Shown here: in pieces, positions 1-63,301 of the stretch
Numbering within the stretch: position 1 is the first letter of the stretch
How the letters are laid out: each line of letters starts with the position of its first letter
Assembly (NCBI GenBank): GCA_014896375.1
Contig: JADBKN010000009.1
Location: 75,088 to 139,087, forward strand
From: Bacillota bacterium
GTDB taxonomy: Bacteria; Bacillota; Sulfobacillia; RBS10-35; Bu92
Direction: 5' to 3'
Length of the DNA stretch: 64,000 nt
The notes under the pieces: model-generated
What the model was told of the DNA's origin: nothing
The model's database searches: none
Seen by the model: the letters and a program-made list of their open reading frames with translations, nothing else
Translations under genes and position numbers: made by a program

Positions 1-720
1 GCCTTCCTCTCACTCGTCTCGAAGGGCGCGGCCTTGGCCGCCATCGTGCGCGTCGTGGCGGTGGGCCTGGGCCCGCTGCATGCCGACTGGCAGCTGGCGC
101 TGGCCGTGCTCTCGGCCCTGACGATGACCGTCGGCAACGTGTCCGCGCTCTGGCAGAAGAACGTCAAGCGCCTGCTCGCGTACTCGTCGGTGGCGCACGC
201 CGGCTACGTCCTGGCGGGCATCGCCGTGGGCACGGCGCTGGGCCTGCAGGCGGTGCTGTTCTACATCCTCGCCTACCTCTTCATGAACCTGGGCGCCTTC
301 GGCGTCGTCATGGCCCTCTCGGGCCAGGGTGAGGGGGAGACCCTTGAGGACCTCGCCGGACTGGCGCGCCGCTCGCCCTGGCTGGCGGCGCTCCTCGCGC
401 TCTTCGCGCTCTCGCTCCTCGGCCTCCCCTGGACGGCCGGGTTCATGGGCAAGCTGCTCCTCTTTCAGGCGACCGTCTCTAGCCACATGACGTGGCTCGC
501 GCTCTTTATCGCGGTGAACACGGGCATCTCCGCGTACTATTACTTCCTGCTCATCCGGCAGATGTACCTGCGGCCGGCGAAGAGCGCGGCGCCCGTGCGC
601 GCGGACGCCTGGCTGGCGGCGGGCCTCGCCGTGGCGGCGGCAGGGGTGCTGCTTTTGGGCATCTTCCCCCAGTCGTTCCTTGAGTGGTCGCAGCTCGCAG
701 CCTTCATGCCGCTGCCCTGA
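1..720 (+). CDS. nuoN: NADH-quinone oxidoreductase subunit N, C-terminal part (5' end lies outside the window)
   Basis: The frame is open from base 1. The translation is a polytopic membrane protein with typical NuoN/ND2 C-terminal segments (…LLAYSSVAHAGYVLAGIA…FYILAYLFMNLGAFG…GLPWTAGFMGKLLLF…). Stop codon at 718-720. Confidence 0.8.
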   Translation, partial: AFLSLVSKGAALAAIVRVVAVGLGPLHADWQLALAVLSALTMTVGNVSALWQKNVKRLLAYSSVAHAGYVLAGIAVGTALGLQAVLFYILAYLFMNLGAFGVVMALSGQGEGETLEDLAGLARRSPWLAALLALFALSLLGLPWTAGFMGKLLLFQATVSSHMTWLALFIAVNTGISAYYYFLLIRQMYLRPAKSAAPVRADAWLAAGLAVAAAGVLLLGIFPQSFLEWSQLAAFMPLP

Positions 721-57590: not shown

Positions 57591-57998
57591 TCAGTCCTCT
57601 TCCGGGACGACCGCCGACGCGGCCAATACTTCTTCGGTGACGACGATCGGCACACCTGCTCGCACGGCGACGGCGATGGCGTCGCTGGGGCGGCAGTCGA
57701 TCTCCATGATGCCGCGCTCCGTCTTCACTTCCAGCTGGCAGATGTAGGTTTCATCGCGCACATCGTGGATGACGACGCGCTGCAGCTCCCCGCCGAGCCG
57801 GCCGATGACGTGCAGGAGCAGGTCGTGCGTGAGCGGGCGCGGCGCCGCGGCGCGCTCCACGCCCAGGGCGATGGCGGCCGCCTCGTACGGACCGATCACG
57901 ATGGGCAGGATGCGCGGGCCGTTCGTTTCCTTAAGCAAAAGAATGTGATCCTGTCCTTCTTCCAATTGACCGATGCTGAGAATCTGCACGGTTTGCAT
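57591..57998 (-). CDS. Bifunctional nuclease family protein (DUF151/BFN domain)
   Basis: ATG with GGAGGAG RBS. MQTVQILSIGQLEEGQDHILLLKETNGPRILPIVIGPYEAAAIA… matches the DUF151 N-terminal pattern. The ORF-track start 45 nt upstream lacks an RBS. Confidence 0.7.
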   Translation of the reverse strand: MQTVQILSIGQLEEGQDHILLLKETNGPRILPIVIGPYEAAAIALGVERAAAPRPLTHDLLLHVIGRLGGELQRVVIHDVRDETYICQLEVKTERGIMEIDCRPSDAIAVAVRAGVPIVVTEEVLAASAVVPEED

Positions 57999-58150
57999 CG
58001 ATGCTCCTCCGCCCATGGGCTGTGCGTCGGCATTGTACAGCAAACGGCTGCCCGCGGGAACGGGCGGCGCGCCGCGCGCCTTGTGGGTGCGGTTGCCATT
58101 GGTCTACGATGCAGCTAGATTCGCGCGCGACCGCCCGAGGGGGCATCCGC

Positions 58151-59116
58151 GTGTCCGAGACGGCATCCCTGCGCGTCGGCCTCGCCGGCGCCGGACGGGT
58201 GGCGCACGCCCTGGCGCCGCACCTCGCCGCGGCGGGCCATCGGATCGTGGCCGTCGTCAGCCGCCACGAGGAGCGCGCGGCGGAGCTGGCGCGGCGGCTG
58301 CCTGGGGAGGCGCTGGCGGCCGGCCTGCCGGCGGACCCGCCCGTCGCTCCGGTCGATCTTCCGCTGGTGGACTGGTGGTTTCTCGCCGTGCGCGACGAGG
58401 CCATCGCGGCCGTCGACGCACGCCTGGACGCAGCCGGGGCCTACGCAGGCGCGCGCCTTGTGACGCACACGAGCGGCGCGTGGAGCGCCGGCGTTCTGCG
58501 CCGCGCGCGGGCGCGCGGCCTCGCGGTGGCCTCGGTGCACCCGCTCTTCAGCATCGCGGGTCCGGCCCCGTCGTCCCTGCGAGGCCTGCGCTTCACGGTG
58601 GAGGGCGACGAGGCCGCCGCCGCCGTCATCGAGCGTTGGCTCGCCGCCGCGGGCGCCCTTGCGCGGCGCATCCGCTCCGAGGACAAGTCGCTCTACCACG
58701 CCGCGGCGTGCATCGCCGCGAACTACGTGGTGGCGCTCCTGGACGCGGCCGAGCGGCTCTTTGTGCGCGCGGGGCTGCCGGCGGAGGAGGCGCGCGCGGC
58801 CGCGGCCGGGCTCGCCCGCTCGGCCCTCGAGAACACGGAGTCTCTGGGGCCGGTACGGGCGCTCACGGGGCCCATCGCGCGCGGCGACGCGGCGACGGTC
58901 GGGGCCCACCTGGCGGCGCTCGCCGGCGCGGCGCCGGACCTGCGGGAGATCTACGCGGCGCTCGCCCGCTACACGCTGGACCTGGCCCGGCGCCAGGCGG
59001 CCTCCGGCGGCGGCGCCGACCCTGCGGACCTTGAGGCCCTGGCGGCGCTCCTCCAGCCTGCGCCGCCGCGCGGCGCGGCCGGCGCCGATCCTGCTTGGGA
59101 AGGCGGTCCATCATGA
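58151..59116 (+). CDS. Rossmann-fold DUF2520-like protein. Putative ketopantoate reductase (PanG-like) of the pan operon.
   Basis: GTG with GAGGGGG RBS. N-terminal dinucleotide-binding motif LRVGLAGAGRVAHALA. The stop overlaps the panB start (ATGA). The PanG assignment is inferred from context and family resemblance only. Confidence 0.5.
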   Translation: MSETASLRVGLAGAGRVAHALAPHLAAAGHRIVAVVSRHEERAAELARRLPGEALAAGLPADPPVAPVDLPLVDWWFLAVRDEAIAAVDARLDAAGAYAGARLVTHTSGAWSAGVLRRARARGLAVASVHPLFSIAGPAPSSLRGLRFTVEGDEAAAAVIERWLAAAGALARRIRSEDKSLYHAAACIAANYVVALLDAAERLFVRAGLPAEEARAAAAGLARSALENTESLGPVRALTGPIARGDAATVGAHLAALAGAAPDLREIYAALARYTLDLARRQAASGGGADPADLEALAALLQPAPPRGAAGADPAWEGGPS

Positions 59117-59973
59117 GCGGCAAGACGGTTCACGACCTGCAAGAGATGAAAGCGCGCGGCGAGCGCATCGTCATGGTGACGGCCTACGACTATCCCTCCG
59201 CCCGCTGCGCTCAGGAGGCGGGCGTCGACGTCATCCTCGTGGGCGACTCCCTGGGGAACGTCGTGCTGGGCTACGAGACGACGATCCCCGTCCGCCTTGA
59301 GGACATGCTGCGCCACGTGAGCGCGGTGACGCGCGCCGAAGGCCCGGCGCACGTCGTCTGCGACATGCCGTTCATGACGTACCAGGTCTCCGCGGAGGAG
59401 GCCCTGCGCAACGCCGCGCGGCTCGTGCAGGAGGGCGGGGCGCAGTCCGTGAAGCTCGAGGGCGGCGAGGCCTTCGCCCCCACCGTACGGCGGATCGTGG
59501 AGGCCGGCATCCCCGTGATGGCGCACATCGGGCTCACGCCGCAGTCCGTGCACCGCCTGGGCGGCTACCGCGTGCAGGGGCGGTCGGCCGAGGCGGCCCG
59601 CCGTCTCTTGGAGGACGCCCTGGCGCTGCAGGACGCCGGCGCGTACAGCCTCGTGCTGGAGGCGGTGCCGTGGCAGCTGGCGGCGGAGATCACGCGCCGC
59701 CTGCGCATCCCCACCATCGGCATCGGCGCGGGCGCGGGCTGCGACGGCCAGGTGCTGGTCTTCCACGACCTCGTCGGCTACTCTTTCGGCACGCCGGCCA
59801 AGTTCGTGCGGCGGTACGCCGACGTGCGCCAGGTGGTGACGGAGGCGCTGCGCCGCTTCGGCGAGGACGTGCGCCGCGGCGCCTACCCCGGGGACGCGGA
59901 GCGGTACTCCATGAAAGACGAGGAGTGGCGCCGGCTGCAGGCGGAGATCGGCGGGGAGGGCGACGGCGCGTGA
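59113..59973 (+). CDS. panB: 3-methyl-2-oxobutanoate hydroxymethyltransferase
   Basis: …IVMVTAYDYPSARCAQEAGVDVILVGDSLGNVVLGY…GLTPQSVH… are canonical PanB motifs. Confidence 0.9.
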   Translation: MSGKTVHDLQEMKARGERIVMVTAYDYPSARCAQEAGVDVILVGDSLGNVVLGYETTIPVRLEDMLRHVSAVTRAEGPAHVVCDMPFMTYQVSAEEALRNAARLVQEGGAQSVKLEGGEAFAPTVRRIVEAGIPVMAHIGLTPQSVHRLGGYRVQGRSAEAARRLLEDALALQDAGAYSLVLEAVPWQLAAEITRRLRIPTIGIGAGAGCDGQVLVFHDLVGYSFGTPAKFVRRYADVRQVVTEALRRFGEDVRRGAYPGDAERYSMKDEEWRRLQAEIGGEGDGA

Positions 59974-60824
59974 GGGTGGCGAGGACGGTGGCGGAAGTGC
60001 GTGCGGCCGTGGCGGAGGCGCGCGCGCGGGGCGCGACGATCGGCTTCGTGCCGACCATGGGCTACTTCCACGAGGGGCATCTCTCCCTCATGCGGCAGTC
60101 CGTGGCGGAGAACGGCTTCACGGTGGTGAGCCTCTACGTGAATCCCCTGCAGTTCGCGCCCACGGAGGACCTGGCGCAGTACCCGCGGGATTTCGAGCGC
60201 GACCGGCGCCTCGCTGCGGAGGCGGGCGTGGACGTGCTCTTCGCGCCGGACGACGCCGAGATGTATCCGGACGGGCCGCAGGCGCAGCGCACGGTGGTGT
60301 CCGTGCGCGGGCTGAACGCCGTGCTCTGCGGCCGCTCGCGCCCCACGCACTTCGACGGCGTGACGACCGTCGTGACGAAGCTCTTCCACATCGTGGCGCC
60401 CGACCGCGCCTATTTCGGGCAGAAGGACTACCAGCAGGCGCTCATCATCCGGCGCATGGTGCGCGACCTCAACTTCCCTGTGGAGATCCGCGTGGCGCCG
60501 ATCGTGCGTGAGCCGGACGGGCTCGCGATGAGCTCGCGCAACGCCTACCTCACGCCGGAGCAGCGCGCGGCGGCGCCGGTGCTCCACCGGGCCCTCAGCG
60601 AGGCGGCCGCGCGCATCCGCGCCGGGGAGCGCGACGCCGGCCGCGTCCGCGCCTTCCTGCGTGAGACGATCTCCGCGGCGCCGCATGCGCGGCTCGACTA
60701 TGCGGAAGTCGTCGATCCGGACACGCTGGAGGACGTCGACACCATCCAGGGCCCCGTACTGCTCGCCGTGGCCGCGTATTTCGGCCGCGCGCGCCTCATC
60801 GACAACATGCTCGTCAGCCCGTGA
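59970..60824 (+). CDS. panC: Pantoate--beta-alanine ligase
   Basis: GTG overlaps the panB stop (GTGA). …IGFVPTMGYFHEGHLSLM… HIGH-like motif and …FGQKDYQQ…. C-terminal …AMSSRN…. Confidence 0.9.
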   Translation: MRVARTVAEVRAAVAEARARGATIGFVPTMGYFHEGHLSLMRQSVAENGFTVVSLYVNPLQFAPTEDLAQYPRDFERDRRLAAEAGVDVLFAPDDAEMYPDGPQAQRTVVSVRGLNAVLCGRSRPTHFDGVTTVVTKLFHIVAPDRAYFGQKDYQQALIIRRMVRDLNFPVEIRVAPIVREPDGLAMSSRNAYLTPEQRAAAPVLHRALSEAAARIRAGERDAGRVRAFLRETISAAPHARLDYAEVVDPDTLEDVDTIQGPVLLAVAAYFGRARLIDNMLVSP

Positions 60825-62166
60825 TCTCGCCCGCCAGGAGGCGCCGCCCGCCGGCGCCTGTGTCCACGATGAGCGCGCCCGCGGCGTCGATGTCGACCGC
60901 CCGGCCGCGCACCGTCTCCGCGCCGTGGACGATCTCCACCTCGCGACCGAGGGTCACCGAGAGCGCGCGCCAGGCGCCGGCCACCGCCTCCGGGCGGCGG
61001 TCGAGGTCGTCGAGCAGCGCGTCGAGCTCCGCTAGGAGGCTGCGCGCGAAGGCGGGCCGCGCCACCGGTCCGCCGCTCTCATGCAAGAGCGAGGTGGCGC
61101 GCGCACGCACGTCCGGCGGGAAACGGTGGCGCGGCAGGTTGAGGTTCACGCCGATGCCGACGATCACACCGGCCGCGGCCGGATCGGGGCCGAGCACCTC
61201 GACGAGGACCCCGGCCAGCTTGCGCCCCTGCACCAGCACGTCGTTCGGCCACTTCAAGCCGCAGCGCACGGCCGCGGCGCGCGCGGCCGCCCGGGCCACG
61301 GCCACGCCCGCCGCCAGCGGCAGGAGCGTGAGCCGCTCCGGCGGCCAGGCCGGCCGCAACACCACGGAGAGCGCCAGCGCCGCGCCGGGCGGCGTATGCC
61401 AGCCGCGGCCGCGCCGGCCGCGGCCGCGCGTCTGCTCCTCCGCCACGACCACGGCGCCGGCGGGCGCGCCGGCCGCCGCCCACTCCCGGGCCACGTCGTT
61501 CGTCGAAGCCGTTGTCTCCAGGCAGCGCACGGCGGTGCCCACATGGCGCAAGCGTTGCGGGGGCAGGAGGCTTTCGGGGGTGTAGACGTCCGGCTCCCAT
61601 TGCGGGAAGGGACCCCAGGGTCGCACGCCCTGCTCGGCAGCCAGCTGCGCGGCGCGCGCCGCCGCGCCCGCGCCGAGCCAGGCGGCCGCCGTTTCCGCGG
61701 GGAGCAGGTCCAGAAGCGGCTGCAGCGCGAAGGCGCGCGCGCCCAGGCGCGGGTGGGGGAGCGTGAGGGCAGGTTCCTCGCGCCGCAGGAGCTGTCCACC
61801 GGCAGCGCCGTCGCCGGGCACGGCACAGAGGAGCAGGTCGATGTCCAGCGTGCGCGGCGCCGGCTCCGGCCGCGCCGCCCCATCCGCTCCGGCCGGGCGC
61901 ACGCGCCCGTAGAGTTCCTCGACCGCCAGCGCCCGCTGCAAGAGTTCTTCCGGCGCGCCCGGCCACTCCACCTCCAGCACGGCATTGAGGAAATCCGGCT
62001 GGGGCGCGGGCACATCCTGCGGGCGCGTCTCGTACACGGGAGAGGCGCGGAGCACGCGCGCGCCGGCGGCCGCGAGGCGCGCGGCGGCCGCGGCCAGGTA
62101 GGCCTCGCGCCGGCCGAGGTTCGAGCCGAGGCCGAGGTAGGCGAGGAGCGCCGGCTCAGCCGCCAC
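60814..62166 (-). CDS. folK-birA: Single 450-aa ORF fusing HPPK (FolK, N-terminal ~170 aa) to a group-I biotin--protein ligase (BirA catalytic plus C-terminal domains, ~275 aa)
   Basis: N-terminus: LGLGSNLG…PVYETRP…PDFLNAVLEV…PRTLDIDLL…LPHPRL (HPPK). C-terminus: …RCLETTASTNDVAREWAAAG…VVVAEEQTRGRGRRGRGWHTPPG…GLKWPNDVLVQGRKLAGVLVE… (BPL). There is no stop codon and no RBS-backed start between the two halves. Confidence 0.6.
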   Translation of the reverse strand: MAAEPALLAYLGLGSNLGRREAYLAAAAARLAAAGARVLRASPVYETRPQDVPAPQPDFLNAVLEVEWPGAPEELLQRALAVEELYGRVRPAGADGAARPEPAPRTLDIDLLLCAVPGDGAAGGQLLRREEPALTLPHPRLGARAFALQPLLDLLPAETAAAWLGAGAAARAAQLAAEQGVRPWGPFPQWEPDVYTPESLLPPQRLRHVGTAVRCLETTASTNDVAREWAAAGAPAGAVVVAEEQTRGRGRRGRGWHTPPGAALALSVVLRPAWPPERLTLLPLAAGVAVARAAARAAAVRCGLKWPNDVLVQGRKLAGVLVEVLGPDPAAAGVIVGIGVNLNLPRHRFPPDVRARATSLLHESGGPVARPAFARSLLAELDALLDDLDRRPEAVAGAWRALSVTLGREVEIVHGAETVRGRAVDIDAAGALIVDTGAGGRRLLAGEITG

Positions 62167-63301
62167 GGGTGCGCACCACCTCGACGGCGACGTCGTTGAC
62201 GGGCCCGCCGAGGGGCGCGCGCGGCTTGTGCACGCGCACCCAGGCGGCCGTCACGGGGAAGCGGGCGAGGAGGCGCTCGGCCACGGCCTCCGCCAGGGCC
62301 TCGAGGAGGTGGCGGCGCGGCCCCTCCAGGACGGCCGCCACCTCGCGGTGGACGGCGGCGTAGTCGACGGCCTGGGAGAGGTCGTCGCTGCGCGCGGCCG
62401 CGCGCCAGTCGCCGTAAAGGCGCACGTCCACGACGAACGGCTGCGGGACGCCGCGCTCCTGCGGATAGGCGCCGTGGTCGGCCTGGAAGCGCATACCCTC
62501 AAGGAGGATGGCGTCCGCAAGGGGCGCTGGAAAGCCGCGGCAGACGGCGTCCACCATGCGCACGGCGCGCGCCGTGAGACGCACGTTGTGCACGCGCACG
62601 ACGTCCGCGCACTGCGCGGCGGCGAGGGCCGCGAGGCCGGCCGTGGCCTCGTCCCGCTCCTCCGGCGGGAGGCCGGTGACCAGCCCCAGCGTGCGCTTGC
62701 GCGAGGGGCCGTAGACGAGCGGCCGGCCGAGCGCCTTCAACTGGCCCAGGCCGCGGGAGAGGGCGAGGTTGACGGCCGCTCCCTTGCCGAAGCCGAAGCC
62801 CGGATCCACCCAGATTTTCTCCCGTGCGATGCCGGCGCGCTGCGCGCGCTCCACAAGGGCCTCGAGCTCCCGGCGCAGGGCCGCGGCCACGTCCGCACCG
62901 GGCGCGCCGCCGCCCGGCTCCCCGTGGTGCACGAGGATGATGTGCGCGCCCGTCTCCGCCACCGCCGCCGCCATGTCCGGGTCGCCGCCCAGCGCGCGCA
63001 CGTCGTTCACGATGGAGGCGCCCGCCGCCACGGCGCGCCGCGCGACCTCGGCCTTGTACGTGTCGACGGAGATCGGCACGGGCAGTTCGGCCGCCAGCGC
63101 CTCGATCACCGGCAGCACGCGCCGCAGCTCCTCTTCCAGAGGCACCGGCGCCGCGCCCGGGGCCGTGGACTCGCCGCCGACGTCGATGATGTCGGCGCCG
63201 TCGGCCACCATGCGGCGCGCGTGCTCCAGGGCGGCGGCCGGGTCCAGGTAGCGGCCGCCGTCGGAGAAGGAATCCGGCGTCACGTTGAGGATCCCCATCA
63301 C
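62156..63301 (-). CDS. folP-folB: Single 381-aa ORF fusing dihydropteroate synthase (FolP, N-terminal) to dihydroneopterin aldolase (FolB, C-terminal)
   Basis: N-terminus: GILNVTPDSFSDGG…DIIDVGGESTAPG…VDTYK…SIVNDV… (DHPS). C-terminal ~120 aa: …ILLEGMRFQADHGAYPQERGVPQPFVVDVRLYGD…VDYAAVHREV… (DHNA). No stop between the halves. Overlaps the folK-birA start by 11 bp. Confidence 0.65.
   Translation of the reverse strand: MMGILNVTPDSFSDGGRYLDPAAALEHARRMVADGADIIDVGGESTAPGAAPVPLEEELRRVLPVIEALAAELPVPISVDTYKAEVARRAVAAGASIVNDVRALGGDPDMAAAVAETGAHIILVHHGEPGGGAPGADVAAALRRELEALVERAQRAGIAREKIWVDPGFGFGKGAAVNLALSRGLGQLKALGRPLVYGPSRKRTLGLVTGLPPEERDEATAGLAALAAAQCADVVRVHNVRLTARAVRMVDAVCRGFPAPLADAILLEGMRFQADHGAYPQERGVPQPFVVDVRLYGDWRAAARSDDLSQAVDYAAVHREVAAVLEGPRRHLLEALAEAVAERLLARFPVTAAWVRVHKPRAPLGGPVNDVAVEVVRTRGG

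Follow-up and report, generated by a model that had tools for sequence, protein, structure and literature searches.

Whether an enzyme of folate synthesis and an enzyme of biotin attachment can be made by one and the same gene is the question raised by the open reading frame (ORF) folK::birA of an uncultured, heat-loving Bacillota bacterium. The ORF is located in a 64,000-nucleotide stretch of contig JADBKN010000009.1 (assembly GCA_014896375.1, positions 75,088 to 139,087), called the window below, and its product joins 6-hydroxymethyl-7,8-dihydropterin pyrophosphokinase (HPPK, FolK) to a biotin–protein ligase (BPL, BirA). Comparisons of its sequence and predicted structure make it likely that this is truly one gene, encoding a bifunctional protein which would have arisen by fusion of neighbouring genes and would carry two independent activities. 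The fusion is real, rare, and recurrent in related bacteria, and it seems to be undescribed so far. Both activities are probably real and act independently, and we infer that the fusion provides co-expression rather than channelling.

Both halves of the protein were recognised by family profiles. In Pfam, HPPK (PF01288) was matched by residues 10–155 (E 4e-30, 104.9 bits against a cut-off of 25.7, profile positions 1–115 of 116), BPL_LplA_LipB (PF03099) by residues 218–341 (E 5e-22, 78.7 bits against 21, profile positions 4–133 of 133), and BPL_C (PF02237) by residues 405–448 (E 5e-9, 36.4 bits against 21). The NCBIfam models TIGR01498 (folK, 90.6 bits, cut-off 54.1) and TIGR00121 (birA_ligase, 172.4 bits, cut-off 83.1) were also matched. 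No HTH (helix-turn-helix) family was matched in Pfam by the window protein, and the ligase was therefore assigned to class I. Two other assignments were tried and rejected: class-II BirA (PRK11886) reached at best 162.6 bits against a cut-off of 362, over profile positions 59–313 only and with no HTH, and Baf-type BirA-CoaX (PRK13325) reached 65.6 bits against 761, over the BPL part only, there being no coaX in the window. A protein with the identical 450 amino acids is present in GenBank (MBE3589714.1, from a Bacillota metagenome-assembled genome, MAG), where it is named only 'biotin--[acetyl-CoA-carboxylase] ligase'. No further HPPK or BPL paralogue was found within the 64-kb window; prokaryotes normally have a single BPL, as seen in a survey of 156 representative BPL/BirA sequences (PMC3199775).

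In an initial homology search, proteins of this architecture were already found at 77%, 50%, and ~35% identity. When 1.84 billion cluster representatives were searched with a profile and the matches were split into the two halves, at least 41 non-redundant fusion proteins were obtained. When these were compared with Pfam, HPPK and BPL were each matched in 41/41, BPL_C in 36/41, and HTH_11 in 10/41. Their alignment served to define an HPPK-BPL fusion family (HPPK, an optional HTH, BPL, and BPL_C in one chain, with the gene directly behind folB), and the window protein belongs to it. The sequences were derived from NCBI, JGI, ENA, and Logan assemblies, and one 90% cluster occurred on ~40 contigs. 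Where a source was named, it was a Bacillota or Clostridia MAG in nearly every case; one was an Armatimonadota MAG. One fusion (CAB1130015.1, UniRef A0A6F8ZKM8) is encoded on a closed 2.57-Mb chromosome (LR778114.1, GCA_902809825), which belongs to 'Ca. Hydrogenisulfobacillus filiaventi' R50, grown in continuous culture (PMC10080006). In a sister form of ~500 amino acids, an HTH_11 winged helix lies between HPPK and BPL, and coaX follows directly; HTH_11 was carried by the fusions L004, L005, and L026, and P0004, P0005, P0007, P0010, P0031, P0141, P0143–P0145, and P0150.

On the HPPK side, N61, E83, R88, R105, D108, D110, H138, R144, and F146 were invariant in 41/41 fusions. We take these to be the counterparts of E. 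coli N55, E77, R82, R92, D95, D97, H115, R121, and F123, a numbering that was checked on structure alignments. On the BPL side, the STN biotin-binding motif was located at residues 221–223; S221, T222, Q245, G248, G250, R251, and K305-W-P-N-D309 were invariant in the 41 fusions, R249, G253, and R254 were at least 90% conserved, and N223 was conserved in less than 90%. The HPPK module would transfer pyrophosphate from ATP to 6-hydroxymethyl-7,8-dihydropterin, between the FolB and FolP steps, and the BPL module would make biotinyl-5'-AMP and pass the biotin to the acetyl-CoA carboxylase carrier protein.

The continuity of the ORF alone is weak proof of a single gene, because the window has 72% G+C and long ORFs occur by chance in every frame. 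When G+C content was followed by codon position, position 2 was lowest (~0.4–0.8) and position 3 highest (0.8–1.0), unbroken over codons 1–450, and the phase of this signature shifted nowhere but at the boundary with the gene upstream. The segment between the Pfam domains contained 0 indels relative to the 77%-identical orthologue at locus L006. Measured against L006, the ratio of nonsynonymous to synonymous substitution rates (dN/dS, Nei-Gojobori) came to 0.24 in the core of HPPK and 0.31 in its tail, 0.21 in the junction (residues 185–216), and 0.22 in the BPL. Purifying selection spans the junction, with a constraint like that of both domains. In-frame GTG or TTG codons are present at residues 181, 206, 209, 213, and 225; no Shine-Dalgarno (SD)-like motif was found within 20 nt upstream of any of these, and a counterpart in L006 was found for the codon-181 GTG only, the other four being not conserved there. 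The GAGGTGG ahead of the start of the whole ORF is also present in L006, but its conservation is not independent evidence, as conserved FolB residues are encoded by the same motif.

The preliminary description of this DNA had reported one 450-codon frame with a complete HPPK, a complete group-I BPL, and its C-terminal domain, with neither a stop nor an internal start backed by a ribosome-binding site between the domains. The Pfam and NCBIfam matches agree with the former statement, and the codon scan upheld the latter. A frameshift or stop hidden between the domains, which had been named as a possible flaw, was signalled neither by the G+C signature nor by the comparison with L006, and the orthologues, which might have been two separate genes, were instead found to be fused at all three levels of identity.

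The apparent 60-residue linker between the Pfam domains is accounted for by the native tail of HPPK and the native N-terminal segment of BPL: the standalone HPPKs P0360 (174 aa) and P0433 (198 aa) reach their own C-termini at window residues 186–188, and class-I BPLs (M. tuberculosis) have ~30–35 residues ahead of the STN motif, for which the window equivalent is ~185–220. W184 was nearly invariant among 13 aligned fusion proteins and is presumably the counterpart of the terminal Trp of E. coli HPPK. Judged by these alignments, the join is end to end at about residue 188, essentially without a linker, as expected if two abutting genes lost the stop codon that separated them. The structure predicted by AlphaFold2 from the 13-sequence alignment had a mean predicted local distance difference test (pLDDT) score of 88.6 and a predicted template modelling (pTM) score of 0.84, with a pLDDT of 88–93 at the junction. 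The native HPPK tail (residues 157–188) was modelled with confidence throughout, as helices at 157–164 and 168–179 and a strand at 182–185. When the model was compared with the PDB by Foldseek, matches covered the BPL half only (best query-normalised TM-score 0.54), and no PDB chain covering both halves was found. An HTH remnant in residues 156–217 was considered and rejected, there being no HTH match and a clean alignment gap where clade-B fusions carry HTH_11. The coordinates of the gene, its parts, and the adjoining genes are collected in Table 1.

Table 1. Features of folK::birA and its neighbours in the window (positions as in the 64,000-nucleotide stretch).
Feature	Coordinates	Strand	Remarks
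folK::birA, whole ORF	60814..62166	(-)	450 codons; GTG start 62166-62164; TGA stop 60816-60814
SD-like GAGGTGG	62176..62182	(-)	9 nt upstream of the GTG start, within the folB 3' end
HPPK (FolK) module	61603..62166	(-)	residues 1 to ~188; Pfam core 10-155
HPPK Mg2+-binding motif D108-I-D110	61837..61845	(-)	corresponds to E. coli D95/D97; invariant in 41/41
Junction	61519..61614	(-)	residues 185-216, GPFPQWEPDVYTPESLLPPQRLRHVGTAVRCL; no stop, no SD-backed start
Join of HPPK C-terminus with BPL N-terminal segment			…VRPWGPFPQWEPD…
BPL catalytic domain	61144..61518	(-)	residues 217-341
Biotin/ATP-binding loop GRGRRGRGW	61399..61425	(-)	residues 248-256; aligns with E. coli BirA 115-123
KWPND motif	61240..61254	(-)	residues 305-309; catalytic lysine (E. 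coli K183); invariant in 41/41; aligned to 1bia
BPL_C (SH3-like C-terminal cap)	60823..60954	(-)	residues 405-448
folP::folB	62156..63301	(-)	DHPS + DHNA, 381 aa; Pterin_bind 2-238, FolB 265-375
panC	59970..60824	(+)	convergent with folK::birA; stops overlap by 11 bp (60814-60824)

Each half is a textbook enzyme of ordinary mechanism, and it is common for neighbouring genes of an operon to fuse. Residues 7–156 align over the whole fold with standalone HPPK/FolK (EC 2.7.6.3; E. coli 1hka and 1q0n, Yersinia pestis 2qx0, S. aureus 3qbc; E 6e-17 to 5e-13), with which the catalytic and ligand-binding residues and the gene position after folB in a fol operon are shared. The window HPPK differs from these by ~7–8 additional residues in loop 3, which is without the Trp, by ~10 additional residues before the PHPR strand, and by a C-terminus that runs into the BPL. 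The BPL half has the GRGRxGRxW loop, the KWPND lysine, and the BPL_C cap in common with class-I BPLs (M. tuberculosis 3rux, 4op0, and 9drk; Pyrococcus horikoshii 1wnl), but the window protein carries the 188-residue HPPK on its N-terminus. Identity to the M. tuberculosis BPL was 36–39%, with a target-normalised TM-score of 0.84 and a root-mean-square deviation of ~2.2 Å (Foldseek).

A covalent link between HPPK and the protein of a neighbouring gene is also seen in the folate fusions S. pneumoniae SulD (FolB-FolK, 2cg8), Francisella HPPK-DHPS (3mcm), yeast FOL1 (2bmb), and plant and Plasmodium HPPK-DHPS (7mpy-type). SulD, HPPK-DHPS, and FOL1 were all among the HPPK matches to the window protein, and the FolP::FolB encoded upstream is likewise such a fusion. 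In SulD, HPPK-DHPS, and FOL1 the partner is a folate enzyme and substrate hand-over is plausible, whereas the partner in the window comes from the unrelated process of biotin attachment. Class-II BirA (winged HTH-BPL) and Baf-type BirA-CoaX resemble the window protein in that BPL tolerates added modules at either end, and coaX directly follows folK::birA in sister fusion clades, although not in the window. The window protein differs in that it has no HTH and in that what it adds to the N-terminus of BPL is a metabolic enzyme.

The fusion directly follows folB in every recovered locus (the window, L001–L007, and L026). The genes folP and folB are separate in L001–L003 and L007 and fused in the window, L005, and L006, as they are in Thermaerobacter marianensis (L088, 445 aa); within the fused protein, FolP comes before FolB, although FolB acts earlier in the pathway. 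In the window, the last 11 nt of folP::folB are also the first 11 nt of folK::birA, an overlap that suggests coupled translation, and four enzyme domains would thus be made from two cistrons. The fusion probably came about in two steps: birA would first have settled immediately behind folK, where the folP-folB-folK operon of a conserved Bacillota block has its 3' end, and the folK stop would then have been lost, so that the native HPPK C-terminus continues straight into the native N-terminal segment of BPL without any linker being added. Translation would start from the GTG at 62166 and would probably be coupled to that of folP::folB by the 11-nt overlap.

The block was recovered as …folP-folB-folK::birA-(coaX or panCB)-…greA-lysS, and we take it to correspond to the folP-folB-folK…lysS region of Bacillus, into which birA (and coaX) has been inserted. 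Downstream of the fusion, the HTH-bearing clade (L004, L005) has coaX, a gene with a BFN domain, greA, and lysS; the window and L006 have an inverted DUF2520-panB-panC, followed by BFN, greA, and lysS; and L007 has an inverted rib operon, followed by coaX, dus, greA, and lysS. By its LysS, the organism was placed among uncultured Bacillota, the nearest cultured relative being Thermaerobacter marianensis (65%). LysS was 91% and 70% identical on the contigs carrying the 77% and 51% fusion orthologues, respectively; this tracking of fusion identity by LysS identity indicates vertical inheritance.

On the other side of the fusion, the overlap with the panC stop leaves no intergenic terminator, and it is kept in L006 (8449–8459) and L089 (3074–3087). 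The longest panC ORF (59670–60824, plus strand, 384 aa) is overextended, with homology from ~59970; panC has 284 aa, as in L006, and its real start overlaps the panB stop (59973). Directly upstream of panB, a 371-aa ORF (58001–59116, plus strand) has the same position as the L006 gene with F420_oxidored, Rossmann-like, and DUF2520 matches. It may encode a PanG-type ketopantoate reductase, completing panE/G-panB-panC. The gene with the BFN domain (bifunctional nuclease, PF02577-type) is at 57591–58043 on the minus strand, and such a gene is conserved within the block in L004, L005, L006, and L088.

To place the locus among other birA genes, GTDB species genomes were scanned for the KWPNDVL motif, and the best 80 matches, an arbitrary sample, were taken. 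Among these 80 matches listed, the fusion was found once (1/80, L026), and L026 was also the only locus with fol genes within 6 kb of birA. In ~24 of the 80, coaX directly followed birA, and panB-panC followed birA in Bacillus, Paenibacillaceae, and Saccharibacillus loci. The habitual neighbours of birA are thus CoA/pantothenate genes, and the link to folK is specific to the fusion lineages. The preliminary description had stated that birA adjoins the pan genes in Bacillus, and panB-panC was indeed found on the same strand in the Bacillus/Paenibacillaceae loci L038, L010, and L021. It had placed the window ORF in the same setting; panC is convergent with the fusion, as stated there, but the conserved partner is the folP-folB operon and not panBC. 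The fusion had also been called unusual, which agrees with its single occurrence in the 80 best-matching loci; however, the database search for the HPPK+BPL architecture shows that it recurs in at least 41 clusters, unremarked in databases.

No description of an HPPK-BPL fusion was found in full-text literature searches, and none is mentioned in a folate comparative-genomics survey (PMC1971073) or in the paper on BPL phylogeny (PMC3199775). A neighbour-joining tree built from 266 BPL domains, which is weak evidence, split the fusions into at least 5 groups with unfused BirA between them, and there was perhaps more than one fusion origin. HTH and HTH-less forms are mixed throughout the published BPL phylogeny as well (PMC3199775). 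The clade of the window protein was coherent; it comprises 16 clusters, and the 'Ca. H. filiaventi' protein belongs to it.

Two relatives served as comparators. Thermaerobacter marianensis DSM 12885 (CP002344.1, L088) has the same order of FolP::FolB, FolK, …, CoaX, BFN, …, GreA, and LysS, but its FolK is a standalone protein of 197 aa, followed by Peptidase_S58, and birA is not at the locus. In L088 (3012–7109), the slot between the standalone folK and coaX is filled by this DmpA-like Peptidase_S58 gene; in L004 and L005, birA is part of the fusion directly before coaX. Locus L089 (1975–3087, protein P0006) encodes a 370-aa BirA with an intact BPL, 48% identical to that of the window. There is no folP::folB in L089, but the flanks are kept: the upstream gene is homologous to the L006 gene upstream of folP::folB (E 1e-46), and panC is downstream, convergent, and overlapping. 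The junction motif is also kept (GPPWSWPPD, compared with GPFPQWEPD), and HPPK is reduced to a ~100-aa vestige, in which ~33 residues are recognisable (window 18–50) and GSNLG, DxD, and PHPR are gone. These remains suggest that the fusion is older than the L089 lineage. With folP::folB lost, HPPK decayed, and BPL intact, L089 also suggests that HPPK is kept only for folate synthesis and that BPL is independent of an intact HPPK.

Other readings of the locus were weighed against that of one gene for two independent enzymes. An indel or substitution in this assembly could have erased the folK stop and falsely merged two genes; the window is from a MAG, and open frames are cheap at its G+C content. 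However, the fusions at 77%, 50%, and ~35% identity come from independent assemblies and a closed genome, the junction has no indels and a dN/dS of 0.21 against L006, and the codon-position signature is unbroken, so that an artefact is effectively excluded and its probability is minimal. It is also unlikely that two proteins are made from the one ORF, whether by internal initiation of BirA (in addition to the fusion or instead of it) or by cleavage of a polyprotein. Internal starts could be provided by the five GTG/TTG codons, given that an SD is dispensable in some initiation, and proteolysis cannot be judged from sequence; but none of these codons is preceded by an SD-like motif, codon 181 alone has an L006 counterpart, the junction is predicted to be ordered, unlike a floppy cleavable linker, and its constraint equals that of the domains. 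Several observations do weigh against two intact and independent activities. HPPK loop 3 (canonical R82…W89…R92, ~11 residues) is ~7–8 residues longer than usual and has no Trp equivalent to W89, and the only low-confidence region of the model (residues 93–96, pLDDT <50) is in this insertion. The pTM of 0.84 and the confident junction hint at fixed inter-domain packing, which could mean functional coupling and not independence, and the vestige in L089 is known from a single Logan contig of 4.1 kb. The objection from loop 3 is weakened by a standalone Conexibacter HPPK with a similar loop, and as the loop also varies in the standalone P0360, it is not strictly defining for HPPK.

The altered loop, with its missing Trp, and the clear vestigial case in L089 would both fit an HPPK half that is a decaying pseudoenzyme, with BirA alone functional and the real FolK encoded elsewhere in the genome. 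This is very unlikely, considering that the Mg2+-, ATP-, and pterin-binding residues are all kept, that the dN/dS of the HPPK core is 0.24, that the gene lies directly behind folP::folB and overlaps it, that there is no other HPPK within the window, and that a similar loop 3 occurs in a standalone HPPK. Functional coupling of the halves is improbable as well: HPPK would take the position of the winged helix of class-II BirA and organise or regulate the ligase, or link pterin/ATP status to biotinylation. A pTM of 0.84 for a two-domain protein implies a defined interface, the architecture persists to ~30% identity and perhaps had more than one origin (at least 5 groups in the tree), and among the 80 best-matching GTDB loci listed fol genes adjoin birA only where fused. 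The N-terminal domain of E. coli BirA reportedly contributes to ligase activity, which was also counted in favour of coupling. On the other hand, the HTH is still present between HPPK and BPL in 10/41 fusions, so HPPK is not a simple HTH replacement; HPPK has decayed in L089 beside an intact BPL; the only substrate shared by the two reactions is ATP; and the neighbour-joining tree gives weak evidence, and only 13 sequences went into the model. Improbable, too, is an adaptive link in which HPPK, at a fixed interface, would allosterically tie the biotinylation of acetyl-CoA carboxylase, with which fatty-acid synthesis begins, to the pterin/ATP occupancy of the folate pathway; if true, it would be a previously unknown folate-biotin cross-talk in thermophilic Bacillota. 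On the evidence at hand, independence of the halves is favoured.

The joining of two enzymes in a single gene has consequences for how these genomes are read. In databases, the fusions are labelled 'biotin ligase' or 'HPPK', never both, and with such single-function labels, automated pathway reconstruction will count folK or birA as absent from these Bacillota lineages. Natural comparators are available in the forms with and without HTH, the standalone Thermaerobacter FolK, the relative with a vestigial HPPK, and the cultured 'Ca. H. filiaventi' R50, which carries the fusion. The stable fusion across two unrelated cofactor systems is also a warning to those who apply 'Rosetta-stone' inference: the fusion appears to be explained by gene order, and a fusion therefore need not mean a shared pathway.

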